From assembly GCA_965228875.1 (NCBI GenBank), contig OZ245843.1, positions 2,710,616 through 2,774,615 of the forward strand: a stretch of 64,000 nt of DNA. The letters run 5' to 3'. The notes below the pieces were generated by a model, which was not told the origin of the DNA, ran no database searches, and worked only from the letters and a program-made list of their open reading frames with translations. Each line of letters starts with the position of its first letter. The first letter of the stretch is position 1. The position numbers and the translations under genes were made by a program. This document shows positions 4,462 through 36,010 of this stretch, piece by piece. This DNA is from Thalassobaculaceae bacterium (GTDB lineage: Bacteria; Pseudomonadota; Alphaproteobacteria; Thalassobaculales; Thalassobaculaceae).

Positions 4462-4890
4462 TCAGTCCCGAACGATCATGACCGAGCAGTTGGCGTGGCG
4501 CACAACACGGGCGGCATTGGGGCCAAGCAGGAAATCCGACAGCTCAGGTCGGTGGGAGGCCATGATGATCAGCCCGCACCGCGTCTGCTCCGCCGCCTTG
4601 ACGATCTCGTTGTAGATCGTGCCATGGGCGACGATGTGCTGAACCTTGACCTCGGACGGGACCGCTTGCTCGCAGTAGGCGTGCAGACGCTCGCGCGCCG
4701 TTTCCATCGCCTGATGCTCGAAATCGGCCGGAAAGAAGCCGGCCACGATGCTGGAGTTGAACTCCGGAACGACGGTCACGACATGCAGCCGCGCCCCGAA
4801 GGCCTTGGCCTGCTCGACCGCGATCCCGACCGCCTTCTCCTGGGTTTCCGGGGACGCCAGGTCGACCGCCAGCAGAATATCCGAGAACAT
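4462..4890 (-). CDS. Universal stress protein (UspA family)
   Basis: ILLAVDL N-terminus and IIMASH...LLGPNAARVVRHANCSVMIVR C-terminus; last gene of the TRAP operon. Confidence 0.92.
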   Translation of the reverse strand: MFSDILLAVDLASPETQEKAVGIAVEQAKAFGARLHVVTVVPEFNSSIVAGFFPADFEHQAMETARERLHAYCEQAVPSEVKVQHIVAHGTIYNEIVKAAEQTRCGLIIMASHRPELSDFLLGPNAARVVRHANCSVMIVRD

Positions 4891-4901
4891 CGCTCCCTCC
4901 C

Positions 4902-7535
4902 TCAGAACGCCGGCACGTCGGTGCGGCGACGCTGCAGGACGATCACCAGCGCCAGCAGCAGCAGGGCCGGAAGGTAGAACACCTCCTTCGGCATCCGCTC
5001 CGCCTCGACCCGGATCTCGGCGATGTGCACCGGATCGTCGCCGTAGAAATCGAAGCCGCCGAGCTTCTGGCCCGGAACACTGCCCGCCGGCCCGGGCCGG
5101 AACGGCTCCTCCAGCTTGGCCATGCCGTCCTCGATCATCACCAGAAGATCGGCATCCTGCAGACGCTGCTCGCCGGCGCCCGCCGCACCGAGCGGCAGCA
5201 TCAGCGTCGTCTCCGCCGTCGTGTCGGGATCGTTGAAGTCCGGTCCCCGGATGACCAGGCGCAGTTCCCCGTCGTCAGGCACCTCGCCGGCGAGGGTGAC
5301 CACCTCGGTCGGATCGACCGTCCGGTAGGGCTCCTGCACCATGTCGAGCCAGAATCCTGGCCGGAACAGGGTGAAGGCGATCAGCAGCAGAGCCACCGCC
5401 TCCCACGCCTTGTTCTTGGCGAAGAAGTACCCCTGGGTCCCGGCGGCGAACAGCAGCATCGCTATCGTCGCTACGAAGAAGACGAAGACCGCCTCCAGCG
5501 GGGTGACGTCGATCAGCAGCAGGTCGGTGTTGAAGATGAACAGGAACGGCAGCGCCACCGTGCGCAGCGAGTAGTAGAAGGCGGTGAAGCCGGTCTTGAT
5601 CGGATCGGAGCCGGAGATCGCGGCCGCCGCGAACGAGGCGAGCCCGACCGGCGGCGTCACGTCGGCCATGATCCCGAAGTAGAACACGAACAGGTGGACC
5701 GCGATCAGCGGCACGATCAGTCCGTTCTGCGCCCCGACCTCGACCACCACCGCGGCCATCAGCGACGAGACCACGATGTAGTTGGCGGTCGTCGGCAGCC
5801 CCATGCCCAGGATCAGGCTGAAGATCGCAACCAGCACCAGCATGGCCATCAGGTTGCCGCCCGACAGGAACTCGATGAACGAGCCGACCACCTGATGGGC
5901 GCCGGTCAGCGAGATCGTGCCGACGATGATGCCGGCGGCGCCGGTCGCCACCGCGATGCCGATCATGTTGCGGGCGCCCGCGATCAGCCCCTCGATGATG
6001 TCGCTGAACCCGGCCGCGAATTCGGCGGCCAGGTCGCCGGCGCCGCGCAGCGCCGCCTTGATCGGACGCTGGGTGATGACGATGAACAGCATCGCCACCG
6101 TCGCCCAGTAGGCGGACAGGCCCGGCGACAGCCGCTCGATCATGAGGCACCAGACCAGCACGACGATCGGCAGCAGGTAGTACAGGCCGGACATGACCGT
6201 CGGCTTGACCTCGGGCAGAGTGCCCACCGGGGCGTCGGGATCGTCCAGTTCGAGATCGGGGAACCGCGAGGCGGCCCAGATCAGCGCGACGTAGACGACG
6301 ACGAAGCCGATGCACACGGCATAGAAGGTGGCGTCGCCGAACACGTCCTTGGTCCAGCCGAGCGCGTAGTAGACGACGGCTGCCGGGATCGCGACGGCGA
6401 GGAAACCGGTCAGCACGCCGAGCAGGCTCTGGACCACGGTCTTCGGCCCGCCGGGCTTCGGCAGCCCCTCCATCCCGGCCTTCAGGGCCTCCAGATGGAC
6501 GATGTAGAGCAGGGCGATGTAGGAGATCGCGGCCGGCAGGATGGCGTGCTTGACCACGTCCAGATAGCTGACGCCGACATACTCGACCATCAGGAAGGCG
6601 GCCGCGCCCATGACCGGTGGCATGATCTGTCCGTTCACCGAGGAGGCGACCTCGACGGCGCCGGCCTTGTCGCCGGAGAAGCCCACCCGCTTCATCAGCG
6701 GAATGGTGAAGGTGCCGGTGGTCACCGTGTTGGCGATCGAGGAGCCGGAAATCAGGCCGGTCATCGCCGAGGACACCACAGCCGCCTTGGCCGGGCCGCC
6801 GCGCAGGTGGCCGAGCAGAGCGAAGGCGACCTTGATGAAGTAGTTGCCGGCCCCCGCCTTATCCAGCAGCGAGCCGAACAGCACGAACAGGAAGACCATG
6901 GAGGCGGAGACGCCGAGCGCCACGCCGAACACGCCCTCGGTCTGCATCCAGAAGTGCCACATGGCCTTGCCGTAGGAGGCGCCCTTCCACTGGATCACCT
7001 CCGGGATGAACGGCTGGTCGCCGAAGAAAACGTAGGTCAGGAACACCGAGGCGACGATCACCAGCGGCAGGCCAAGCGCGCGGTAGGTGCAGATCAACAC
7101 CAGCGCGATGCCGATGGTCGAGACCACGAGGTCGCCGGTGGTCGGCAGGCCGGCGCGCAGGGCGATCTCGTTCTTGAAGACGATGAGGTAGAGGCAGGCC
7201 GCCGCACCGAGCAGCGCCAGCCCCCAGTCGTACCAGGGCACGCGATCACGCGGCGACGACTTGAAGAGCGGATAGGACATGCAGGCCAGCACGAAGGCGA
7301 AGGCCAGATGGATCGCCCGCGCCTCGTCGGAATTGAAGACGACGTTGATGCCTGTGAGGTCCTGCAGAATGAAGGGCAGGTTGGACGCGTAATAGAGCTG
7401 GAAGAGCGACCAGGCGAGCGCCAGGCCGGCAAGCAGCTTACCGACGACGCCGTGCGGGTTGCGGTTGCCGGTGTCGGTCGAGGCGACGAGGTCGTCGAGA
7501 TCGACCGCTTTCGATGAGGTTGACTGGTCGCTCAT
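4902..7535 (-). CDS. TRAP transporter 4TM/12TM fusion permease (TAXI type)
   Basis: 877 aa polytopic; GGPAKAAVVSS, SGSSIANTVTTGTFTIPLM, GQIMPPVMGAAAF, LGMGLPTTANY, ADVTPPVGLA. Confidence 0.95.
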   Translation of the reverse strand: MSDQSTSSKAVDLDDLVASTDTGNRNPHGVVGKLLAGLALAWSLFQLYYASNLPFILQDLTGINVVFNSDEARAIHLAFAFVLACMSYPLFKSSPRDRVPWYDWGLALLGAAACLYLIVFKNEIALRAGLPTTGDLVVSTIGIALVLICTYRALGLPLVIVASVFLTYVFFGDQPFIPEVIQWKGASYGKAMWHFWMQTEGVFGVALGVSASMVFLFVLFGSLLDKAGAGNYFIKVAFALLGHLRGGPAKAAVVSSAMTGLISGSSIANTVTTGTFTIPLMKRVGFSGDKAGAVEVASSVNGQIMPPVMGAAAFLMVEYVGVSYLDVVKHAILPAAISYIALLYIVHLEALKAGMEGLPKPGGPKTVVQSLLGVLTGFLAVAIPAAVVYYALGWTKDVFGDATFYAVCIGFVVVYVALIWAASRFPDLELDDPDAPVGTLPEVKPTVMSGLYYLLPIVVLVWCLMIERLSPGLSAYWATVAMLFIVITQRPIKAALRGAGDLAAEFAAGFSDIIEGLIAGARNMIGIAVATGAAGIIVGTISLTGAHQVVGSFIEFLSGGNLMAMLVLVAIFSLILGMGLPTTANYIVVSSLMAAVVVEVGAQNGLIVPLIAVHLFVFYFGIMADVTPPVGLASFAAAAISGSDPIKTGFTAFYYSLRTVALPFLFIFNTDLLLIDVTPLEAVFVFFVATIAMLLFAAGTQGYFFAKNKAWEAVALLLIAFTLFRPGFWLDMVQEPYRTVDPTEVVTLAGEVPDDGELRLVIRGPDFNDPDTTAETTLMLPLGAAGAGEQRLQDADLLVMIEDGMAKLEEPFRPGPAGSVPGQKLGGFDFYGDDPVHIAEIRVEAERMPKEVFYLPALLLLALVIVLQRRRTDVPAF

Positions 7536-21297: not shown

Positions 21298-22983
21298 TCA
21301 GGGTGAGAGGAGGAGGTCGGCGGCGGCCTCGTCGCCAGTCTCCGTCGCCAGCGGGTCGCGTGGCGTGAGTTTGTGGCGGATCACCAGTTCCGCGAGCGCC
21401 GTCCGCTTCTCTTCCCCGAGCAGCGCCCCCTCCGTCGCCAGCAGGCAGGCCGAGGTAGCGTGGTAAAGGCCGGAGGCGACGGTGCGGGCGCGCGCGTCGT
21501 CCCCGACTTCCGCCGCCCTGCCGACCGCCGCCACTGCCCGGACCAGCAATCCGTCGAGTCGGGACCGCAGCCCGTCTTCCACGCCCGCCTCTTCCATGCG
21601 CCGCGACAGGGCGGTGCCAAGCGCCGTATGCGCCGCCTCCTTGCGCGCCGCCCGCAGCACGTCGAGGGCGACGATGTTGCTTGTCCCCTCCCAGATCGAG
21701 CCGAGATGGCTGTCGCGCACCAGGCGCGGCTCGACCCACTCCTCGATGTAACCGACGCCGCCGCGCGCCTCCATGGCGTCGCCCGTGACCTTGCGGGCGT
21801 CGCGGCAGACCCGGAACTTGACCAGCGGGGTGAGGATGCGGCGCAGCGCCCGGCCCTCGTCCTCGCCGGCGTCCGCCCGCGCCAGCGCGTCGGCGGTGAA
21901 CATCGTCACCGACAGGGCCTGCTCCGCCCGTACCATCAGTTTCAACAGTTGTCGCCGCTGCAGCGGCAGGTCGATCAGCCGGCGCCCGAAGGCCTCGCGT
22001 CCCCGCGCGACGGTCAACGCCTCGCGCAGGGCCCGGCGCATGATCCCGGCCGAGCGCACGGCGTTGGACAGCCGGGACTGATTGATCATCTCCGCCATCT
22101 GCACGAAGCCCTGGCCCGGCTCGCCGATCATCCAGGCCGCCGCCCCCTCAAGCACAATCTCGCCGGAGGCCATGGAGCGGGTGCCGAGCTTGTCCTTCAG
22201 CCGGACGATCCGGTAGCGGTTGCGCTCTCCGTCCAGCAGCACCTTCGGCAGCAGGAACAGCGACACGCCCCTGATCCCCGCCGGCGCGCCGTCCGGTCGC
22301 GCCAGCACCAGGGCGAGCCCGGCATCGGTGTTGGAGCAGAACCACTTGTCACCGGAGAGCCGCCACATGTCGCCATCCCGGCGCGCCGTCGTCACCGTGG
22401 CGGCGACGTCCGAGCCGGCGGCCTTCTCGGTCATGAACATCGCACCCTGGATCTGATCCTCCAACCGCGCGGCGGTCAGCCCCGGCAGATAGCGGGCGAC
22501 CAGCTCCGGATCGGCGAAACGACGGATGGTCCGGGTCAGCGCATCGGTCATGCTAATCGGACAGAGCAGGCCGAACTCCGCCTCGGCGAACAGGTACTGA
22601 AGCGCGTACTTGGCGGCATGCGGTACCGGCCTGTCGAGACCCAGCGCCGGACGGTGCGACAGGGCGGCGAAGGCGAACTCCTCGAACCCGATGCGCTCCA
22701 TCTCGACATAGGCCGGGTGCTTGTCGATCGACTGGACATCCCGGCCCTGACGGTCGCGATGACGCAGCATCGGCGGATTGCGGTCGGCCTCATGGGCCAG
22801 ATCGTCAAGCCTGCTGTGGACCAGCGCGCCCAGGCGCCGGAACGCCGGGGTCAACGCCTCCAGGTCGGCGGACGCCAGGTACAGCCCCAGCAGAGCCCGC
22901 AGCGCGGTATCCTCCTCAAAGGCGTTAAGCCCGCGCGTCTCCGGCTGCGCGCGATCGGACGGCCCGGCAGCGGTCAGATCCAT
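21298..22983 (-). CDS. Acyl-CoA dehydrogenase (AidB-like)
   Basis: CPISMT, MFMTEKAAGSDV, GDKWFCS, RLKDKLGTRSMASGE, GGVGYIEE, SIWEGTSNI; ATG 22983 with GGAGGAG RBS. Confidence 0.9.
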   Translation of the reverse strand: MDLTAAGPSDRAQPETRGLNAFEEDTALRALLGLYLASADLEALTPAFRRLGALVHSRLDDLAHEADRNPPMLRHRDRQGRDVQSIDKHPAYVEMERIGFEEFAFAALSHRPALGLDRPVPHAAKYALQYLFAEAEFGLLCPISMTDALTRTIRRFADPELVARYLPGLTAARLEDQIQGAMFMTEKAAGSDVAATVTTARRDGDMWRLSGDKWFCSNTDAGLALVLARPDGAPAGIRGVSLFLLPKVLLDGERNRYRIVRLKDKLGTRSMASGEIVLEGAAAWMIGEPGQGFVQMAEMINQSRLSNAVRSAGIMRRALREALTVARGREAFGRRLIDLPLQRRQLLKLMVRAEQALSVTMFTADALARADAGEDEGRALRRILTPLVKFRVCRDARKVTGDAMEARGGVGYIEEWVEPRLVRDSHLGSIWEGTSNIVALDVLRAARKEAAHTALGTALSRRMEEAGVEDGLRSRLDGLLVRAVAAVGRAAEVGDDARARTVASGLYHATSACLLATEGALLGEEKRTALAELVIRHKLTPRDPLATETGDEAAADLLLSP

Positions 22984-23114
22984 GGTCTCCTCCGAAATGC
23001 TCCCCTTCGCCGATGCCGGCAAGTCTGGCAGTCGACCTGCACTGCCGCAACGCGACGTGCGATGACCGGCCGGTCGACCCTTGGGTCGAGACGGTTGCCG
23101 GAGCATGCACACCC

Positions 23115-23143
23115 ATTGAGAGTTTCTGCGAATCGCTCTCAAT
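23115..23143. promoter_or_regulatory. Fur-like palindromic operator
   Basis: ATTGAGAG-N13-CTCTCAAT perfect arms enclosing the 7-1-7 dyad TGCGAAT-C-GCTCTCA (23127-23141), about 90 bp upstream of the TBDR operon. Confidence 0.5.
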
Positions 23144-23174
23144 AATGTTTGAAGCGAAATCGATCTTCCGGCGT

Positions 23175-23189
23175 TTTACTAAATGTTAA
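23175..23189. promoter_or_regulatory. CtrA-like box TTTA-N7-TTAA
   Basis: TTTA CTAAATG TTAA about 45 bp upstream of ATG 23234. Confidence 0.35.
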
Positions 23190-23233
23190 ATCCCTTCTTC
23201 CTAGTTTCCGCCGCGATTTAGGAGGACAGCGCG

Positions 23234-23758
23234 ATGCGGAAACTGCTCATTAAACTCGCGGCCCTGATGACGGTGTTTCCGACCGTTGCGGGTGCCGATG
23301 TCTCGGAACGCGACATTCAGGTCGCGGCGCGGACCTTCGGGTTCGTCAGTGGAATACCTTCGGGCGACGTCGTGGTGGCGATCGTCCACGACCCGGCCGT
23401 CGGCCCGTCGAAAGCGGAAGCCGATCAGCTCGCAGGGATCATCGGCGGCGGGCTCAAGGTGGCCAAGCACACCCTGAAATCCAAGCTCGTCCCGGTCTCC
23501 GCCCTGGATCTGTCCGGCACGAACGTCGCCTTCGTGACGTCCGGGCTCGGCGGACAGCAGGCGGCGACCTTCTCGGCAGCCTCGGCAGCCAAGGTGATGA
23601 CGGTGACCACCGACTTCGCCTGCGTCGATGCCAAGCAGTGCGTGATGGGTGTGGCCGCCGAGCCGTCCGTCAAAATTCAGATCAGCCGTTCAGCGGCCGA
23701 CGCCACCGGTCTCGAGTTCTCTCAGGCCCTCAAACTGATGGTCTCAGAGAGCGACTGA
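23234..23758 (+). CDS. YfiR/HmsC-like (DUF4154-like) periplasmic protein
   Basis: Signal peptide; C-terminus MTVT.D..C...C.MGV....VKIQISRSAA...GLEFS.AL resembles the YfiR tail; AGGAGG RBS. Confidence 0.65.
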   Translation: MRKLLIKLAALMTVFPTVAGADVSERDIQVAARTFGFVSGIPSGDVVVAIVHDPAVGPSKAEADQLAGIIGGGLKVAKHTLKSKLVPVSALDLSGTNVAFVTSGLGGQQAATFSAASAAKVMTVTTDFACVDAKQCVMGVAAEPSVKIQISRSAADATGLEFSQALKLMVSESD

Positions 23759-23795
23759 ACGTCGCCGACCGACCTGTCTCAAGAAGGACCCCGCC

Positions 23796-25685
23796 ATGTT
23801 CAGGACCACCAAGACCCTCGTCCTCGCCGCGCTGCTCTCGGGTACGGCGCTTGCCGGCGCGCAGGCCAAGGACATCGATTACAACGCCTTCGGCGCCCTG
23901 TTCGGAGAGCCGGTCACAACCGGCGCCACCGGCGTGCCGCAGCGCGCCTCGGACGTTCCGCTCAACATGACCATCCTGTCGGCCGACGACATCCGCCGCT
24001 CGGCCGCCCGCACGATCCCCGACCTGCTCCGTCAGGTGCCCGGCGTGAACGTGCGCCAGAACTCCCATGGCCACTACGATGTCGGGATTCGCGGCTATAA
24101 TCAGGCTTATAACGAGCGCCTGCTGGTCCTGCTGGACGGCCGTCCGGTCTACCAGGATTTCTACGGCTTCGTGGCCTGGAACGCGATTCCGGTCTCCCTG
24201 AACGAGATCAAGCAGATCGAGGTCATCAAGGGTCCGAACACCGCGCTCTACGGCTTCAACGCCACCTCGGGCGTGATCAACATCATCACCTACAACCCGC
24301 GCTTCGACGACTACTCGAACGTGACGGTCTCCGGTGGTACCGACGAATACTTCGAGGGCAACGGCACGGCCACGCTGCGGAATGAGAAGGGTGGCGTGCG
24401 GGTCGCGGTCTCCGGTTACGGCGCGGAGAACTTCGACACGTCGACCCCGACCGGCATCGCCGTGCCGGAGAGCACCAACAACTACAACCGGTTCTACAAG
24501 GTCAAGGGCGGCTACGAGATCTACGACGGCGTCGACATCAACGTCGAGCTCTCCGACGTCGCGGCCGGAACCCCGGAACTCCTGGCGACCAACCAGTTCA
24601 GCGACAACGACTACCGCACGAAGTCGGCGAAGTTCAATCTCGGCGCCGAGACCGATCTCGGTACGTGGGACCTGCTCTACTACAACACCCACACCGAAGC
24701 AGAGATCGACATCGGCACCTTCCAGTCCGACTTCAAGGACGAGGTTCAGGTCGCGCAGCTCAGCAACATCTTCAAGCTGGGCAACGATCACACCTTCCGC
24801 CTGCAGGCCGAGTACCGCGACGCCAGCGGCAACGGCCCGGTGTTCACCAACACGATCAACCACGAGGTCATCACCGGCAGCGGCCTGTGGAGCTGGGCGA
24901 TCAACGATCAGTTCACCCTGTCCAACGCCGTGCGCTACGACATGCTGTCGATGGACCAGGACGGCGGCGACCCGAGCTTCGACCGCGATCTGGACGCGCT
25001 GAGCATCAACTCCGGCCTCGTCTACAAGCCGACCGATGTCGACACCATCCGCCTGACCTTCGCGCGGGCCGTCGACCTGCCGAGCTTCGCCGAATTCAGC
25101 TCCGCCCCGTCGAGCGACATCTCCACGGTCCACAACTACGGCATCGACTACAACCACGTGTTCACCGACCTGAACACCACGTTCGGCGCCAGTGTCTACT
25201 ATCAAGACATCAAGGACATGCAGGACTTCTCCACCTTCCCGACGACGACCACCAACCAGGTGGACTCGGAGGCGATCGGCGGCGAACTCTCGCTGGACGG
25301 CACCATCGCCGGCGGCTGGCGCTGGGGCGTGGGCTATGGCTACGTGACCACCGAGGACTCGAGCAACGCCGCGCGGGGAACCCTGGTGGCAGCGACCTAC
25401 GAGGACGCCCAGTCCGAGCATATCGTCACCGGCAACCTCGGCTACGCCCAGGATGACTGGTCGGTCGACGTCTACACCAACTACATGAGCGGTTTCGACG
25501 CGACCAACTTTGCCGGAACCGACATCGACGGTGTCCTGCTCGGCAGTCTGAAGGTCAATTACCGGCCGATGGAGAACCTGAACCTGTCCCTGACCGGCTT
25601 CGCCACGCTGAACGGCGACAAGGCACAGAACCTGGGCCAGGAGGTCGAGGACTCCATCTTCGCCAGCGTGTCCTTCACGTTCTGA
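23796..25685 (+). CDS. TonB-dependent outer-membrane receptor
   Basis: Signal peptide, plug ([42 protein letters not shown]), beta-barrel strand pattern, C-terminal Phe. Confidence 0.92.
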
Positions 25686-25698
25686 GCCATCTCCAGTT

Positions 25699-25730
25699 CC
25701 GCACGGCCGGCTCCGATCCCGGCCGTGCGG
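25699..25730 (+). other. Intercistronic GC-rich hairpin between the TBDR and MCP genes
   Basis: CCGCACGGCCGG / CCGGCCGTGCGG 12-bp perfect stem, no U tract. Confidence 0.55.
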
Positions 25731-25761
25731 CTTCCGTGACCACGAACCCGAGGACCGCGCT

Positions 25762-27462
25762 GTGACCAACTGGCTCGCCAATATCCCGTTCTCCCTGAAG
25801 ACGCTCGCGTCGCCGGTCATCGCGCTCGGTGCAATCGCCTTCGTGTGCTTCAGCGGCGTGACCAACCTGCGCGAACAGGTCGACCAGACACAGACGCTCC
25901 TCGAACAGGAAATCGAACCCGCCTTCGTGCTGTCGAGCGTGGTCCGCGATCTCCTGAGCGTGAACGACCAGCTCTTTGCGATGGCCTCCCTGGTTGCCGC
26001 CGAGACCTATGACGGCGACGTCGCGACCACCGCGGGCGAACTGCAGGGAACGGTCGCGGCCCTCACCGCGCAGCTTCAGAACTATGCCGACACCCAGGCC
26101 GACGAGTCGCAGCAGGCCCGGCTGAACGACGCGCTCACCGCACTGCAAACCTACAACGAGACCATCGAACTCTTCGCGGTGATGCTGGAGCTCGACTTCA
26201 AGGCGGCGGCCGGAACGATCCAGGCATTCCGGGCCAACTACACACAGGTCCGCGACGCCGTGAGCAGCCTGGCCGAGGAGGCGATGGCCCAGGCCCGGGA
26301 CCGCGCCGAGCGGTCGGCCCGCGCCGCCGAGTCGGCCGAGCAGACGTTCCTGATCAACGCCGTGCTCGCGGCCGCCCTGCTCCTCATCCTCGCGGCGCTG
26401 GTCGCCTACGAGACCGTCACCTCCATCCGGCGGATCGCCGCACGGACCCTGGAACTGGCGAACAACAACCTGGATATCGACATCGACGGCCTGAAGCGCC
26501 GCGACGAACTCGGCCGGATCGTCGAGTCGCTCATCTCCTTCCGCACCAATATCGAGCGCGTCGGCACCCTGCAGGAAGAGCAGAAGGCGGCCGAGAAGCG
26601 GTCCGAGGCGGAGAAGACCGCGCTGATGTCGCGCCTGGCGGACGAGTTCGAGCGCGACGTGAAGGCGGTCGTGAACACCGTTTCCACCACGGCGGTGAGC
26701 CTGTCGGAAACCATGTCCTCGGTCTCGCAGTCGGTCTCCCGGTCGTCGGAGGTCGCCAGCGACGCGTCGTCGTCGGCCGCCCAGACGACGCAGAACGTGC
26801 AGTCCGTCGCCACCGCCGGCGAGCAGCTTTCGGCGTCGATCAACGAGATCGCCCAGCAGGTCGCGCAGTCCCAGCGCCTGGTCGACGACTCGGTCGAGCG
26901 GACCGTCAACGCCGACCAGCACGCCGTGTCCCTCACCGTCGCCACCGGCAAGGTCCGGGAGGTGATCGAGCTCATCCTGAACATCTCGAGCCAGATCAAC
27001 CTGCTGGCGCTCAACGCCACGATCGAGGCGGCGCGCGCCGGCGAGGCGGGCAAGGGCTTCACGGTCGTGGCCAGCGAGGTGAAGAACCTCGCCAACCAGA
27101 CCCAGCAGTCGGTCGAGGCCGTCACAACCGTTGTCGAGGAGATGGACACCGTCTCCCAGCACATCGTCTCCTCGCTGCGGGCGATCCGCGAGTCGGTGGA
27201 CAACATCTCGGAATCCTCGCAGGTGGTCGCCTCGGCGATCGAGGAACAGCGCACGACGACCAACGAGATCGCACTCAATATGAACACGGCGGCGACCGGT
27301 TCGCAGGCGATTTCCGACGGTCTCGACGAGGTGAGCCGCTCGTCCCAGGACGCCCAGGGCGGCGTCGACCGCATGATGGGCGAGTTCACCGGCCTGCAGG
27401 ACTGCTCGCGAACCCTCGACACCGCGGTTTCCGGCTTCATCAGCAGGATCCGCGCGGCCTAA
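25762..27462 (+). CDS. Methyl-accepting chemotaxis protein
   Basis: TM1, about 160-aa helical periplasmic domain, TM2, HAMP (RRDELG), [30 protein letters not shown]. Confidence 0.95.
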
Positions 27463-27582
27463 ATCCCGCCTGCTGAATCGCGCCTGCCCGTCGCGGGATC
27501 GCGCCGCGACGTTGCGTCGTCCGCCCCGTCTTGCCAGTCTTCACTCGGACCCGGCACAGACACCAGAGGGGCGGACTTCGCC

Positions 27583-28599
27583 ATGACCGAGACATTCAAG
27601 GCCTATCTGCTGCGCGAGGGCGACGACCGCAAGGTCACCGGCGCCTTCGAGGACGTCCCCGTCAGCGACCTTCCCGCCCCGTCGCCTGATGGCGCCGACG
27701 TCACCGTCCGCGTGGCCTACACCACCGTCAACTACAAGGACGGCATGGTGATGAACGGGATCGGCCGGCTGGTGCGCGCCTATCCGCACGTGCCGGGCGT
27801 CGACTTCTCGGGCGTCGTCGAGGCTTCCGACAATCCCGGCTTCGCTCCCGGCGACAGGGTGGTGCTGACCGGCTGGCGCGTCGGCGAGACGCACTGGGGC
27901 GGCTACGGCGAGTTGGCGCGCGTCAAGGGCGACTGGCTGGTCAGGCTGCCGGACGGGCTCTCGCTGTCGCGGGCCATGGCGCTCGGCACCGCCGGGTTCA
28001 CCGCCGGCCTCGCCGTCGACACGTTGGAAAACGCCGGCATGGATCCGTCGAAGGGCGACGTGCTGGTCACCGGAGCGGCAGGCGGCGTCGGCAGCGTCGC
28101 CGTCGCCCTGCTCGCCGCCAGGGGCTACAGCGTCGCCGCCGCCACCGGCCGGACGGAGACCCACGACTACCTGAAGGGCCTTGGCGCGGCGACACTGATC
28201 GATCGTGCGGATCTGGCCGAACAGCCGGGCCGGCCGCTGAACAAGGAGCGGTTCCAGGCGGCGATCGACAATGTCGGCGGATCCACGCTGGCCAACCTCC
28301 TGACCCAGCTCGCCTACGGCGGCTCGGTGGCGGCGGTCGGGCTCGCCGGCGGCAACGAGGTGACGACCACGGTCCTGCCGTTCCTGCTGCGCGGCGTGAA
28401 CCTGCTCGGCATCGACAGCGTGATGTGCCCTGCCGAACGTCGCGCCAAGGTCTGGGCGATGATCGCCGCCACCCTGGCGATGGAGAAGCTCGACGCCATC
28501 AGCCACAGCCACGGCTTCGACGAGTTGCCGGCACTCGGCAAGGCGATCCTCAAGGGCGAGGTCCGCGGCCGCGCGGTGGTGACGGTCGGCGGGGAGTGA
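27583..28599 (+). CDS. acuI: YhdH/AcuI-like MDR oxidoreductase (acryloyl-CoA reductase family)
   Basis: VNYKDG, VPGVDFSG, GETHWGG, GTAGFTA, VTGAAGGVGS, PFLLRGVNLLGIDSV. Confidence 0.85.
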   Translation: MTETFKAYLLREGDDRKVTGAFEDVPVSDLPAPSPDGADVTVRVAYTTVNYKDGMVMNGIGRLVRAYPHVPGVDFSGVVEASDNPGFAPGDRVVLTGWRVGETHWGGYGELARVKGDWLVRLPDGLSLSRAMALGTAGFTAGLAVDTLENAGMDPSKGDVLVTGAAGGVGSVAVALLAARGYSVAAATGRTETHDYLKGLGAATLIDRADLAEQPGRPLNKERFQAAIDNVGGSTLANLLTQLAYGGSVAAVGLAGGNEVTTTVLPFLLRGVNLLGIDSVMCPAERRAKVWAMIAATLAMEKLDAISHSHGFDELPALGKAILKGEVRGRAVVTVGGE

Positions 28600-30422: not shown

Positions 30423-31565
30423 ATGACAGACAGCTCGACGCCGACCGAGGCTCCGGCACCAACAGATGCGGACCCGCGAATCGCCTTCGACAACAGCGAA
30501 GGCATGGGCCCGCTGATCCTGCGGCATTGCCTGAACACCGCCCTGATGGTGCTGACCCTCGGCGTCTACCGGTTCTGGGCGATCACCGTGATGCGGCGGC
30601 TGATGTGGTGGCGCACCAGCCTGGACGGCCAGCGCTTCGAGTACACCGGCAACGGCCTGGAGATCTTCATCGGGTTTCTGAAGGTGTTCCTGTGCGTGCT
30701 GCTGCCGATCGGCCTCGCCATCGCCGCCATCCGACTGACCCTGGAAACGCAGGCGACCGCCGCCAGTCTGGAGGCGCTCCAGGTGGTTGACGGCGTCTAT
30801 GCGGTTCTGGTGTTCCTGCTGATCGAGCTGGGCCGGTTCCTGAGCTGGCGGTATCGGGTGGCGCGAACCCGGTGGCGCGGCATCCGCTCGCGGATCGACA
30901 TGCGGGTTCCGCGTTACTTCGCCGTGGCGCTGGGCTCGGCGACGATGCTCGTGTTCTCCGTCTGGCTGCTGAAGCCCGTGGTCGACGTGCTGCGGGCACG
31001 GACCCTGATCAACAACCTCGACGTCGGCGGCGTGCGGGCCACCCTCGACCTGTCGCTCACCCGGCTGGTACCGGCCTGGCTGCTGTTCGTCGTGGTGATC
31101 GCCCTCGCCTACACCGGCCTCGTCGCGTGGATCGTGCTGTCCTCGGGCATCATCCAGACCCTCGCGGTTTCCGCCACCGAGGACGGGAGCGAGGCGGCGG
31201 GATCGATTGCGACCCTGGCCGCCTTCGCCTCGGTCTTCCTCGTCCCGCTGCTGGTGGTATGGGGCTACAGCGCCTACCGGGCCGCGTTCTGGCGCCATGT
31301 CTGCGCCAACGCGCGGGTCGGCCCCCTGTCCTTCCGTTTCACCGGAACGGCGACGGGCCTGTTCTGGCTGTCGCTCACCAACGTCGCGATCTACGTGTGC
31401 TCCCTCACCCTACTGGCGCCGGTCACCTGGCGGCGCCGACTGGACTACGCCGCCCGGCACCTGACGATCATCGGCCGGATCGATCCGCAGGCGCTGCACC
31501 AGATCCCCCAGGACGAGAGTGCCGTCGGCGGGGAGGGCCTGGCCGGTGACTTCGATCTCGCCTGA
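30423..31565 (+). CDS. YjgN/DUF898 family inner-membrane protein
   Basis: LTLGVYRFW, F.YTG.G.E.F.GF, TRWRGIR, F.FTG motifs; multiple TM segments. Confidence 0.85.
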   Translation: MTDSSTPTEAPAPTDADPRIAFDNSEGMGPLILRHCLNTALMVLTLGVYRFWAITVMRRLMWWRTSLDGQRFEYTGNGLEIFIGFLKVFLCVLLPIGLAIAAIRLTLETQATAASLEALQVVDGVYAVLVFLLIELGRFLSWRYRVARTRWRGIRSRIDMRVPRYFAVALGSATMLVFSVWLLKPVVDVLRARTLINNLDVGGVRATLDLSLTRLVPAWLLFVVVIALAYTGLVAWIVLSSGIIQTLAVSATEDGSEAAGSIATLAAFASVFLVPLLVVWGYSAYRAAFWRHVCANARVGPLSFRFTGTATGLFWLSLTNVAIYVCSLTLLAPVTWRRRLDYAARHLTIIGRIDPQALHQIPQDESAVGGEGLAGDFDLA

Positions 31566-32688
31566 ACCGGCGGCCGGACGGAAGGGCGCCGAGGGCAACG
31601 CCCGACTGCTCGATGGCGTGACAGGTGTCGAGCACCGGGTGGCTGCGGTGGTCGAGGCCGGGGGGCTGCGCCTCATCCCCGCCGCCCCCCTGGCCGCAGC
31701 CCCGCAGTGTCCGCTTCTCTGGCCGTGGGAAGAGACCTACGTCCCGGCGTCGACCGGCGGGAAACGCGTCTTCGCGACCGCCCGGGCGGCCGATGCCCGG
31801 TTGACGGTCCTGGACCCGCGGCTCGCCCGCAGGATCCGCCGGAGCGTCCTCGGCGACCCGCGAACCGGGGGCCGGCAGCCGGGACCGTTTCGCCGACGCC
31901 CGGCCGCCGCTCTGGTCATCGCGGCGACCGGCCTCGCCGCCCTCGTTGTCCTGCTCGCCCTGGCCCCGGTCAGCGCCGGCATTGCCCGCCTGCTGCCGGC
32001 GGATGCCGGGGCGGCGATCTCCGACACGGTGATCGCGGAGCTCGGCCGGGCGCACGGCCGGTGCCTCGCCAAGGAGGGGTCCGACGCGATTGATGAACTT
32101 GCCGGACGGTTGGCCGACGCCGCCGGGATCGCGTCTCCCGCGGTCGCGGTGGTCGACTGGGACCTGGTCAACGCCTTCGCGTTGCCGGGACAGCGGATCA
32201 TCCTGACCGGCCCGCTGCTCCGCCAGGCGGAGGATCCGTCGGAGATCGCCGCCGTGCTAGCCCACGAGATCGCCCATGTCGCCCACCGCGATCCCACAAC
32301 CGGCTGGATCCGCGGCGAGGGCGTCGACCTGCTCATGACCGCCGTGTTCGGCGCCAGCACCACCGGCGGGTTGGTGGAGTCCCTGGCCGGCGGCCTGATC
32401 ACCGCGCGCTACACCCGCGATCAGGAAGAAGCGGCGGATGCCGCCGCCGTGACCTACCTGCGGGCCGCGGGCATCCGCTCCTCCGGCGGTGCGGCATTCT
32501 TCGAGCGCCTTTCCCATGCAGAGCCCGACGGCGCCCTGGGCGACGTGCTCGATCTCGTCGCCACCCACCCGGGCGCCGGCAGCCGGGCCGACCTCTACCG
32601 TTGGGCATCGACCGGCAGCGGACCGGGACTGAACGACACCCAGTTCGCCGCCGTGGGCGAGATCTGCTCGGTGACCCGGCTGCGCTGA
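31546..32688 (+). CDS. M48 family zinc metallopeptidase
   Basis: VNAFALPG, AVLAHEIAH (HExxH), YTRDQEEAAD, THP; GTG 31546 with GGGAGG RBS; usual YjgN partner. Confidence 0.88.
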   Translation: MTSISPEPAAGRKGAEGNARLLDGVTGVEHRVAAVVEAGGLRLIPAAPLAAAPQCPLLWPWEETYVPASTGGKRVFATARAADARLTVLDPRLARRIRRSVLGDPRTGGRQPGPFRRRPAAALVIAATGLAALVVLLALAPVSAGIARLLPADAGAAISDTVIAELGRAHGRCLAKEGSDAIDELAGRLADAAGIASPAVAVVDWDLVNAFALPGQRIILTGPLLRQAEDPSEIAAVLAHEIAHVAHRDPTTGWIRGEGVDLLMTAVFGASTTGGLVESLAGGLITARYTRDQEEAADAAAVTYLRAAGIRSSGGAAFFERLSHAEPDGALGDVLDLVATHPGAGSRADLYRWASTGSGPGLNDTQFAAVGEICSVTRLR

Positions 32689-33282: not shown

Positions 33283-33318
33283 GTAATTGTTTATTAACCG
33301 GTCGGGCTTACGGTTAAT
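33283..33318. promoter_or_regulatory. CtrA-like box overlapping an inverted repeat upstream of the large MCP
   Basis: GTAA-N7-TTAAC (33283-33298) and ATTAACCG-N10-CGGTTAAT (33293-33318). Confidence 0.45.
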
Positions 33319-33349
33319 GACGGAAGTGTGCGACATCAGGAGTGGAATT

Positions 33350-36010
33350 ATGTCCGTGACGAATGCTGGACAGCCGGAGAGCGACCAGTCCTCACCGGAA
33401 TTTGAAGCCGACGGCCAGCCTTCGAAGACCTCCGGAGGGTTCGGAATCGCCGGACGGCTCGGGACGGCCTTCGCGGCCACGACGCTGCTCACGGTCGTGA
33501 CGGCTGGCGTCGCCTGGTTCGCCTTCTCCAACGTGGAAGGCACCCTGGTCACCGTGACCGACGAGGCGATGCCGGCGGTGACCAGCAGCCTGCAGCTGGC
33601 CGCGACCAGTTCGAGCGTGGCCGCCGCGGCGCCGAGCCTCGTGTCGGCCGGATCCGATACCGAGCGTCAGGCGATCCGGGACGAGTTGGCGACCAAGCAG
33701 GAAGAACTGGCGCTGCACATCGAGGAACTGCAACGCACCGGCACCGATACCCAGGCGCTGTCCGAGCTCGCCTCGACCCTGGCATCGGCGATGACCGATC
33801 TCGACTCCGCCGTGGTCCGCCGGGTCACCGCCCAGACCAAGCTGACCGAGGCGGTCGAGCTAGTCACCGACGTGAACTCGCTGTTCCAGAGCGAAGTCCG
33901 GCCAATGATCGTCGAGGCGGGCGAGCGGATGGTCACGACCGGCGAAGAGGCGATCGCCACGACAAGTTCGACCATCGGCGAACTGCTCGGCACGCACCTG
34001 TCGGCCCTCAAGGACGTCCTGGTGATGGCCAGTAACGGCCAGAAGATGCTCGGAACGCTGACCCGCGTGGCCAACATGTCCGACCTGGACAAGATCGCCG
34101 CCGAGGAAGCCGCCTACAAGGACCTCGCCACTCTGATCGAGTATTCCGTGACCAGCGCCCCGGACACGGAGACGGGGAACAAGTTCCGCGATGCCGCGAT
34201 GCAGATCGCCGCGCGGGGAACCGGCGAGAACTCAGCCTTCGAGATCCGCCGCCGGGAGATCAACTGGGTCATGCTGACGCCGGAGGAGTACGAGGCGACG
34301 CAGCGCCAGCGCGAAGACCTGGACGCCGCTCTGCCGGAGATCTCCAAGGCCTTCGAGGAGTCGGTAAACCCACTGGTCGCCGACGCCCAACGGGACATGG
34401 CCATGGCCGGCCGCGACCTGGCGATCGGTACCCGCAAGACCATCGGCGGACTGATCGAGTACGACGTGAAGGAATTCCAGATCATGCTGGAGGCGGCGGC
34501 GACCGCCAACCTGGTGATCGGCAGCCTGAACGCGGCCGCCGGCGCTGAGTCCGTCCGCCAGCTCGACACCATCAAGATCGAGTATTTCACGGCGCTCGCG
34601 GCTCTCGACGATCTGAAGATCGCGGCCACCGGGTTCGAGCGCCTCTCGGGTCTGGTGCCGAGCATCGACACCATCCTGATGCTGGGTGACACCGACGACG
34701 GTGTGTTCGAGCGCCGGGCTGCGGTGCTGCTCGCGGAGGCCGACGCCGACTCCTCCCTGGTCCGCACCCGCGACGTGTCCAACTCGTTCGGCAGCGCAGT
34801 CGCCGAGCTGGTGACGGCCGCCACTTCCTCGGCCCAGGCGACGGCGGCAGCGGCGAAGGATACCATCGACGACAGCCGCATGCTGGTCGCCGCCCTGGCG
34901 GTCGCCAGCGTCGTGGTCGCGCTCGTGATCGGCTTCATCGTGGTGTGGCGCGGCGTGGTCCAGCGGCTGACGGCCCTGGCCGGCGTCATGCGACGCCTCG
35001 CCGACGGCGAGCTGGATGTCGAGGTCGACACCTCGGGCCATGACGAGATCTCGACCATGGCCGAGACCGTCCAGGTCTTCCGCGACAGCGCCAAGGAGGT
35101 CGAGCGTCTGCGCGCCGATCAGCTCGACTCCGAGCGGCGCGCGTCCGAGGAACGCCAGCGTCAGCGGGTCGAGTTGGCCGACGCCTTCGAGAGCCGCGTC
35201 AAGGGCATCGTCGACCGGCTCGGTACCGCCTCGCGCGGCATGGCCGAGACCGCCCGCAAGATGGCCGATGGCGCGGGCGACGTGCGCGAGCGCTCGACCG
35301 CCGGTGTCGGCGCCGCGCAGCAGACCTCGTCCAACGTCCAGACCGTGGCGGCGGCGGCGGAAGAGCTGTCGGCGTCGATCGTCGAGATCTCCAACAAGGT
35401 CAGCGAGAGTTCGCACCGGGCCCGCGAGGCGGCCGACCAGGCGGAGGCGACCAACCGAACGGTGGAGACCCTGGAACAGGCGACCAACCGCATCGGCACG
35501 GTCGTCACCCTGATCCAGGACATCGCCGAGCAGACCAACCTGCTGGCGCTGAACGCCACCATCGAGGCAGCCCGCGCCGGCGAGGCCGGCAAGGGCTTCG
35601 CGGTGGTCGCCTCGGAGGTGAAGTCGCTGGCCAGCCAGACCGGCAAGGCCACCGAGGAGATCACCCACCAGATCAAGGCGGTGCAGGACGGCGTGGCCGA
35701 CGCGGTGACGGCGATCCGGGAGGTTTCCGAGGCGATCCGCGAGATCGACGGCCATGTGACGGCGATCGCCGGCGCGGTCGAGGAGCAGGGCGCCTCCACC
35801 CAGGAGATCGCCCGCTCCAGCCAGGAGGCCGCGACCGGGACCGACGACGTCACCCGCACGATCGAGATGGTCTCCAGCGTGGCCAACGACACCGGCCAGC
35901 AGGCCGAACAGGTCCTGACGTCGGCGACCACGCTGGCCGACGACTCCTCGCTGCTCGACCGCGAGGTGACCGGCTTCCTCGACCGGGTCCGTAGCGGCGG
36001 TCAGAGCTGA
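33350..36010 (+). CDS. Large methyl-accepting chemotaxis protein with extended helical sensor
   Basis: TM1, about 480-aa periplasmic region, TM2, HAMP (GHDEIS), [39 protein letters not shown]. Confidence 0.95.

Follow-up and report, generated by a model that had tools for sequence, protein, structure and literature searches.

A conserved, mobile three-gene cassette encoding a YfiR-like periplasmic protein, a TonB-dependent receptor and a chemoreceptor: a candidate envelope-spanning chemosensory module

Introduction

A stretch of 64,000 nucleotides from a Thalassobaculaceae bacterium (contig OZ245843.1 of assembly GCA_965228875.1; this whole stretch is referred to below as the window) carries three genes in a row on its + strand, encoding a small YfiR-like periplasmic protein, a TonB-dependent receptor (TBDR) and a methyl-accepting chemotaxis protein (MCP), with intergenic gaps of 37 and 76 nt (Table 1). 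This trio is a real, conserved and mobile three-gene module, and we propose, with a probability of roughly 0.55, that it constitutes a self-contained chemosensory unit spanning the cell envelope and operating as a partner-switch relay. Four findings underlie the proposal: the YfiR-like protein as modelled has the YfiR fold, the three genes stay linked at related loci, they have moved together as one cassette, and a complex prediction run with controls places the YfiR-like protein on the sensor domain of the MCP. An initial annotation of this DNA had already suggested a relay from the TBDR through the YfiR-like protein to the MCP; the fold, the conserved triplet and the predicted sensor contact support that part, and its hint at an iron ligand is not supported. 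The open reading frame (ORF) coordinates also agree with its description of three co-oriented genes with those same gaps.

In the proposed relay, the TBDR would bind a ligand at the cell surface and would probably also import it with TonB energy. The periplasmic YfiR-fold protein would turn a conserved face, composed of its N-terminal and C-terminal helices, toward the sensor of the MCP, where the docking site would be the membrane-distal α3/α4 face of a four-helix bundle. The ligand state of the TBDR would then set the share of the YfiR-like protein held at the outer membrane and the share residing on the chemoreceptor, in a partner switch as in YfiB-YfiR-YfiN, and this switch would alter the control of CheA by the chemoreceptor, steering swimming. 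Four elements of this scheme are inferences: that the YfiR-like protein touches the TBDR, which way the switch operates, what ligand is bound, and what behaviour results.

A Periplasmic Protein With the YfiR Fold

The first gene, with AGGAGGA 8 nt ahead of its ATG, encodes a protein with a signal-peptide-like N-terminal segment and two cysteines in all, C130-x5-C136. The initial annotation had described it as a 174-residue exported protein with a C-x5-C pair and a likeness to YfiR, a picture with which the N-terminal segment, the cysteines and the fold are all in agreement. Its sequence is divergent: the Pfam model DUF4154 (PF13689) matches the window protein at E 3.7e-4 and 21 bits, below the cut-off of 24.9, and the NCBIfam model of the TOL_0243 YfiR-like proteins (NF053591) gives 20 bits for a cut-off of 125. 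An alignment of the window protein with 23 relatives (24 sequences; hereafter A1) was used to describe the subfamily; 21 of these 24 members match PF13689 at E ≤ 0.01 (best 2.1e-6), and one of the relatives, from Nisaea, carries the NCBI name “YfiR/HmsC family protein”. The A1 profile retrieved no YfiR from the PDB sequences, the best match (E 0.42) being an unrelated pectin degradation protein.

The AlphaFold2 (AF2) model of the protein has a mean predicted local distance difference test (pLDDT) value of 89.8. Among the Foldseek matches listed from the PDB, YfiR chains take the 12 best places (E 5e-6 to 2.5e-5; template modelling score by target 0.63-0.76), followed further down the list by single-lobe and two-lobe substrate-binding proteins. 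The small protein as modelled thus has the YfiR fold, as had been anticipated, and the relationship is visible by fold comparison only and not by a sequence profile against the PDB.

Of the two cysteines, C136 occurs in every A1 sequence and C130 in at least 90% of them. For YfiR of Pseudomonas aeruginosa, a structural C-terminal disulfide pair, Cys145-Cys152, and a redox-sensitive pair, Cys71-Cys110, have been described (PMC4655355). The window pair may correspond to the structural pair of YfiR, a comparison made by spacing, which is x5 in the window protein and x6 in YfiR. These observations bear on the possibility, in our view highly improbable, that the unit is an envelope-stress or redox sensor, in which the TBDR would be a mere outer-membrane anchor and the state of the envelope or its redox balance would be reported to chemotaxis. 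A disulfide-type pair, C130/C136, is kept, and YfiBNR and HmsCDE are described as responding to envelope stress and to the periplasmic redox state (PMC4655355; PMC8846402); on the other hand, the redox-switch pair Cys71-Cys110 has no counterpart in a protein with just two cysteines, and the partner is a complete TBDR, whose plug, barrel and conserved TonB-box-like motif speak for ligand gating and not for a passive anchoring role.

Predicted Contact With the Chemoreceptor Sensor

The third gene encodes a membrane chemoreceptor whose HAMP (E 3.3e-8) and MCPsignal (E 6.7e-27) domains were recognized by Pfam, and no Pfam family matches its sensor region. The AF2 model of the sensor (pLDDT 82.6) contains helices at residues 10-79, 87-111, 115-144 and 146-214, in line with the helical periplasmic domain that had been read from the sequence at first; its nearest solved structures, Vc1313, NarQ, Tar, Tsr, MCP2201 and QseE, are four-helix sensors belonging to chemoreceptors and kinases, none of them reaching E ≤ 0.001. 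The family of this sensor shares the motif Y..(T/A)(I/V)(E/D)F...M(L/M)(E/S)(L/I)DF..(A/S)......F..N(Y/M).

The complex of two sensor copies (residues 37-192) with one mature YfiR-like protein (residues 22-174) was predicted with a score of 0.65 (0.72, 0.65 and 0.64 in three runs), the best of three controls reaching 0.00. In calibration the mark was attained by 116 of 157 solved complexes and by 2 of 215 mismatched pairs, counts that hold only roughly here because of our own alignments and the 2:1 stoichiometry. Both partners have pLDDT values of at least 90, and the runs have at least 94% of their contacts in common. The predicted interface joins sensor residues 129-159, corresponding to the end of α3 and the start of α4 and coinciding exactly with the conserved motif, to residues 26-37, 77-78, 142-146 and 163-169 of the YfiR-like protein. 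On both partners the interface positions are more conserved than the rest (permutation p about 0.003-0.004); of the residues that never vary, 6 of 17 in the YfiR-like protein and 3 of 7 in the sensor fall within it. R33, F37, L166 and M169 of the YfiR-like protein and M141, F156 and N159 of the MCP belong to this predicted interface. We know of no experimental structure in which YfiR is bound to a four-helix sensor, so that it seems unlikely that the model merely reproduced a known complex. In YfiR itself, the face equivalent to the predicted contact face, a conserved surface formed by α1 and the C-terminal helices, is where YfiB binds and where YfiN has been proposed to bind (PMC4655355). The prediction, a check that the initial annotation had put forward, supports a contact of the YfiR-like protein with the sensor of the MCP.

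Conservation of the Linkage and Candidate Alternative Outputs

To follow the gene linkage, 33 loci carrying a member of the subfamily were compared. Besides the window, species genomes contributed 11 of them, metagenomes 8 (of 10, L025 and L026 being left out for their shortness) and a sample of 400 further genomes, drawn evenly across the class, 13. Neighbouring genes were identified by Pfam, local hidden Markov models and phmmer, and adjacency in the class sample was taken from stop-to-stop frames. An orthologue of the TBDR adjoins the YfiR-like gene in 28 of the 33 loci; in the 15 loci where ORF coordinates gave the gap, the two genes overlap by up to 14 nt or stand as much as 73 nt apart. 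The loci with no adjacent TBDR are L021, L022 (on a cut contig), L023, G282 and G161; in this last genome the YfiR-like gene stands at a contig end, and another contig opens with a TBDR followed by the sensor.

An MCP gene is adjacent in 16 of the 33 loci. It lies co-directionally behind the TBDR in 13 (the window, L001, L002, L007, L008, L010, L017, G376, G209, G446, G173, G453 and G336), diverges from the YfiR-like gene in two (L018 and L019), and occurs on both sides in one (G117). These MCP-linked loci range over G+C contents from 0.37 to 0.67, so that the conservation of the triplet, on which the earlier reading had been made to depend, holds in two gene arrangements and across distant base compositions. 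An exchange of the MCP for kinases or GGDEF proteins had also been considered beforehand; kinases are found as neighbours at L020, L021, G253, G269 and G326, and response regulators of the REC-HDOD type at L004, L011 and L021. The REC-HDOD genes come next at L004:5002-6234, L011:8458-9705 and L021:1219-5819 (two genes in L021), where the YfiR-like gene stands behind the TBDR or opposite a PAS kinase. These neighbours suggest a further class of outputs for the pair of YfiR-like protein and TBDR.

A Mobile Cassette

The trio lies between a gene for an AidB-like acyl-CoA dehydrogenase on the - strand and one for a zinc alcohol dehydrogenase on the + strand. In 5 of 5 genomes of the same genus the two flanking genes are directly adjacent, about 63 bp apart, without the cassette, and the trio is therefore an insert of about 4.47 kb. 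Its G+C content is 0.63-0.65, versus 0.68-0.72 in the flanks. The YfiR-like gene was found in none of 10 other species of the genus of the window, and in just 3 of 63 genomes of the taxonomic order, namely the window genome and 2 of 10 genomes of a second genus, Nisaea. The trio is a mobile cassette whose three genes were acquired together.

As had been noted from the start, no gene for an ATP-binding cassette (ABC) importer, TonB/ExbBD, or an extracytoplasmic function (ECF) sigma factor or its anti-sigma factor is present in the flanks, and neither the cassette nor its flanks contain GGDEF, CHASE8 or OmpA domains. The host machinery is encoded elsewhere in the genome, with five CheW-domain matches and one TonB C-terminal domain.

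The Sensor Family and the Weight of the Evidence

A first word-index search with the sensor gave 3 proteins, and a profile search of representatives was used instead. The latter gave a sensor family of 722 representatives at E ≤ 1e-3, of which 100 reach E ≤ 1e-30; the top 150 divide into 100 MCPs, 19 kinases, 6 GGDEF proteins and 25 sequences that are fragments or of other kinds. The sensor profile (A2) has one match in the window genome, and in five trio genomes the MCP of the trio is its sole strong match; A2 found nothing in five assemblies with the pair of YfiR-like protein and TBDR but no MCP, these being assemblies of about 2 Mb and unclear completeness. At the YfiR-like loci, 12 of the 16 adjacent MCPs carry the sensor family of the window. 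In one low-GC genus (G173, G453 and G336) the MCP of the trio has a different, helical-looking sensor of about 300 residues, with no detectable similarity to the sensor family of the window and no Pfam match. When the class sample is approached from the sensor side, 4 of the 7 best-matching loci have a neighbouring TBDR gene.

Several observations weigh against the proposed relay. That the YfiR-like protein touches the TBDR is proposed from the adjacency of their genes. For the sensor complex, the score expresses how confident the model itself is, and since the alignments were part of its input, the conservation of the interface is not a fully independent line of evidence. The redox-sensing cysteine pair of YfiR is missing, and therefore details of the YfiR mechanism may not carry over. 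No MCP is adjacent at 17 of the 33 YfiR-like loci, some of which have kinases or REC-HDOD proteins and some nothing. The sensor family, in turn, is wider than the trio: a TBDR adjoins 5 of 20 sensor-side loci of the class sample, and the genomes G215, G115 and G114 have good sensor matches and no detectable YfiR-like or DUF4154 gene; therefore, this type of sensor can work without a YfiR-like partner.

The absence of the MCP from those 17 loci and the occurrence of the sensor family without a YfiR-like gene in those three genomes, together with the strong hairpin that, in loci of the Nisaea type, stands between the MCP gene and the other two, would fit a situation in which the YfiR-like protein pairs with the TBDR for uptake or an envelope function, and the MCP travels in the cassette as a hitch-hiker with no functional link to them. 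We consider this improbable, since the MCP is adjacent in the other 16 loci, both co-directionally and divergently and over the whole range of G+C content from 0.37 to 0.67, 12 of these MCPs share one sensor family that is single-copy in the window genome, the complex prediction passes with all controls at 0.00, and the three genes were acquired together. The relay through the YfiR-like protein to the chemoreceptor is the reading preferred here.

The TonB-Dependent Receptor

The compact receptor of 629 residues reported initially was confirmed by Pfam, which assigned a Plug domain to residues 51-160 (E 5.5e-24) and the barrel to residues 234-600 (E 3.4e-19). There is no N-terminal signalling domain, the plug beginning at residue 51 with about 25 mature residues ahead of it. 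The aligned TBDR orthologues share the motif IDY..(F/L)..LFGEPVTT(S/G)ATG.PQR right behind the signal peptide, and by comparison with the TonB-box consensus we read this motif as a putative TonB box with a conserved extension. The TBDRs at the subfamily loci are full-length orthologues of the window TBDR, with 28-56% identity, whereas the other YfiR-linked TBDRs of the same genome have just the plug in common with it. The NCBIfam model NF053590, which describes the TOL_0244 TBDR, likewise matches the window protein in the plug only (134 bits; cut-off 645).

Solved receptors (CirA, BtuB, FecA, PirA and others) resemble the window TBDR in the plug alone, at residues of about 37-190, and a substrate assignment was rejected for this reason. 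The earlier hint at an iron complex is thus not sustained by the receptor, nor by the putative Fur box considered below. Besides, two observations on receptor genes were made at other loci: in the metagenome locus L018, a second TBDR gene (L018:8701-10803) stands directly behind the YfiR-linked one, and the trio TBDR of L030 (L030:4745-7180) is split into two adjacent frames, 4745-5521 and 5522-7180, possibly by a frameshift or an assembly error.

Relation to Known Systems

The closest parallel in fold is found in YfiBNR (TpbB/DgcN; Pseudomonas aeruginosa and E. coli) and HmsCDE (Yersinia), where a small periplasmic protein with the YfiR fold likewise relays from the outer membrane to an inner-membrane sensor. 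The same conserved face (α1 and the C-terminal helices) is predicted to be in contact here, and a C-terminal cysteine pair is present that may correspond to the structural pair of YfiR. In the window, nevertheless, a TBDR takes the place of the OmpA-like lipoprotein YfiB at the outer membrane, and an MCP with a four-helix sensor that of the CHASE8-type diguanylate cyclase at the inner membrane; the redox pair of cysteines is missing, and the protein falls below the Pfam cut-off for DUF4154. The arrangement would follow the YfiBNR/HmsCDE scheme with its outer- and inner-membrane partners replaced.

The initial annotation knew of no characterised system with this layout, a statement that is not supported, as NCBIfam models of a trio of TBDR, YfiR-like protein and kinase exist and a relay of TBDR, periplasmic protein and kinase has been reported (PMC10570129). 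The NCBIfam models are NF053590 (TOL_0244 TBDR), NF053591 (TOL_0243 YfiR-like) and NF053592 (sensor histidine kinase, YfiR-like protein-associated), with a TBDR and a YfiR-like protein beside a membrane sensor as here. Differences lie in the gene order (YfiR-like, TBDR, sensor in the window), in the output, which is an MCP, and in the sensor, which is helical and not CHASE8; moreover, the window proteins score far below the cut-offs of NF053591 and NF053590, and the MCP has no match to NF053592. Two loci elsewhere in the same genome do have the order TBDR, DUF4154 and CHASE8-HAMP histidine kinase (Table 1) and come near the NCBIfam cut-offs (112 and 74 versus 125; 616 and 572 versus 645; 177 and 143 versus 194). 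The literature searched contained no experimental paper on the NCBIfam trio and no paper linking YfiR or DUF4154 with a TBDR, subscription journals being largely beyond that search. In this sense, the swap of the outer-membrane partner to a TBDR is already known, having been catalogued with a kinase output and barely studied; what is distinctive here is the divergent YfiR branch, the four-helix-bundle chemoreceptor as partner, with its predicted interface, and the gene order.

Signalling from TBDRs is otherwise represented by FecA-FecR-FecI, in which the ligand state of a TBDR is likewise conveyed to an inner-membrane protein; the window TBDR differs in having no signalling domain and no sigma/anti-sigma gene nearby, and the relay here would be a protein soluble in the periplasm. 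Chemoreceptors can also sense indirectly by way of binding proteins, as Tar does with maltose-binding protein, and binding proteins contact Tar in its membrane-distal region. The YfiR-like protein is similarly predicted to be a soluble protein docking membrane-distally on the four-helix sensor of a chemoreceptor, but it has a single-lobe YfiR fold, and its gene lies beside a dedicated outer-membrane receptor instead of an ABC importer.

A relay with the same components in a row (TBDR, periplasmic protein and inner-membrane sensor) has been reported in Cycloclasticus sp. P1, where PahS (a TBDR, Q91_0827), PahP (periplasmic, Q91_0826) and PahK (a kinase) are encoded side by side; PahP is reported to be on PahS without ligand and to move to PahK with ligand, and chemotaxis genes are among the downstream targets of PahS/PahP/PahK/PahR (PMC10570129, 2023). 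PahP is described there as a two-lobed substrate-binding protein of 318 residues with a ligand-binding role of its own, and in place of a chemoreceptor the output is a histidine kinase that works through transcription (PMC10570129). Neither the text nor one supplement of that source mentions YfiR or DUF4154 or gives PahP a family name other than “substrate-binding protein”, and the comparison made here is with that description.

PahP is the model for another explanation of the trio, a ligand shuttle, which we hold to be rather unlikely. The TBDR would admit the ligand, the ligand-loaded YfiR-like protein would dock on the MCP as maltose-binding protein does on Tar and as PahP is reported to do on PahK, and the signal would be the imported ligand itself. 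Docking is predicted on the four-helix bundle at its membrane-distal part, the region of Tar that binding proteins contact. Furthermore, PahP is reported to bind the ligand, to leave the TBDR and to bind the kinase more tightly (PMC10570129). The YfiR-like protein, however, is a single lobe of 150 residues without the two-lobe cleft of true binding proteins, and its complex with the sensor is predicted at high confidence without any ligand. The partner switch governed by the ligand state of the TBDR is preferred here to the imported ligand as the signal.

Noncoding Elements and Neighbouring Genes

Table 1. Coordinates of the features described. Positions without a locus prefix refer to the window; those with a prefix lie outside it.
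Feature	Position	Strand	Description
YfiR-like periplasmic protein, 174 residues, divergent DUF4154 branch	23234..23758	+	Pfam, AF2 model, Foldseek
TonB-dependent receptor (TBDR), 629 residues	23796..25685	+	Plug and TonB-dependent barrel (Pfam)
G+C-rich hairpin without U tail, TBDR-MCP spacer	25699..25730	+	Perfect 12-bp stem, 8-nt loop
Methyl-accepting chemotaxis protein (MCP), 566 residues, GTG start	25762..27462	+	First transmembrane segment (TM1), four-helix-bundle sensor (~37-192), TM2, HAMP, MCPsignal
Whole cassette	23107..27580	+	~4.47-kb insert between acyl-CoA dehydrogenase gene (- strand) and zinc alcohol dehydrogenase gene (+ strand)
Inverted repeat TTGAGAG-N13-CTCTCAA, 7-bp arms	23116..23142		Left edge of insert, beside acyl-CoA dehydrogenase start
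MCPs with ~300-residue sensor	L051:10768-12639, L052:10603-12501, L053:10641-12512		Low-GC genus
Two same-genome loci, order TBDR, DUF4154, CHASE8-HAMP histidine kinase	L015:6850-11112, L016:6639-10773		Outside the window

The hairpin without U tail seen at the outset ahead of the MCP was confirmed, and the spacer between TBDR and MCP folds at -32.6 kcal/mol. G+C hairpins with unrelated stem sequences fill the same spacer in 4 of 4 Nisaea-type loci (the window, L001, L017 and L002), and there is no such hairpin in the spacer of the Azospirillum and Henriciella loci (L007, L008 and L010). Judged from sequence, this recurrence would fit a structural role, be it in transcript stability, processing or partial termination. 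A role as terminator was set aside, the consensus scan having found no terminator-like site there, and the same type of scan gave no sigma-70-like promoter anywhere in 22900-27800.

The Fur-like box invoked by the initial annotation did not survive either: the best match in 23100-23240 to a 19-nt Fur consensus is 11/19, a chance level, and 91 positions of the window match that consensus as well or better. Patterns of the Irr and RirA boxes were not found ahead of the YfiR-like gene, and L001 and L002 show no conservation with this upstream region; the inverted repeat at the left edge of the insert is likewise not kept ahead of the first gene in these two Nisaea loci.

Further downstream in the window, two observations stand apart from the trio. 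A second chemoreceptor gene, at 33287-36010 and 6 kb from the cassette, encodes a protein of 907 residues with a TorS-sensor-like periplasmic domain, HAMP and MCPsignal. At 30423-32688, a gene for a DUF898 membrane protein is followed by one for an M48 peptidase, with overlapping ORFs.

Significance

It is poorly understood how motile Gram-negative bacteria steer toward TonB-dependent substrates such as siderophores, cobalamins, oligosaccharides or hydrophobic compounds, as inner-membrane chemoreceptors are blind to what has yet to cross the outer membrane. A dedicated cassette of receptor, shuttle and chemoreceptor would answer this question directly, and, if the proposal is true, cells could swim toward scarce or bulky substrates unable to diffuse through porins. 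A wider formulation, which we advance tentatively, is that of a receptor-gated chemotaxis: the MCP would itself be blind to the attractant and would read the occupancy or TonB-box state of the TBDR via a YfiR-fold shuttle on the conserved α3/α4 motif, the docking sensor module would be reused on kinases and enzymes of cyclic di-GMP (c-di-GMP) metabolism, and the unit would move between genomes as a 4.5-kb cassette.

From the experimental point of view, the cassette is small, self-contained and horizontally mobile, it is present in cultivable genera (Azospirillum griseum, locus L007), and it offers a concrete predicted interface with named residues on both partners. Besides, YfiR would be recast, from a device of c-di-GMP signalling and envelope stress, into a general periplasmic adaptor that may connect outer-membrane proteins to several sensor folds and outputs.

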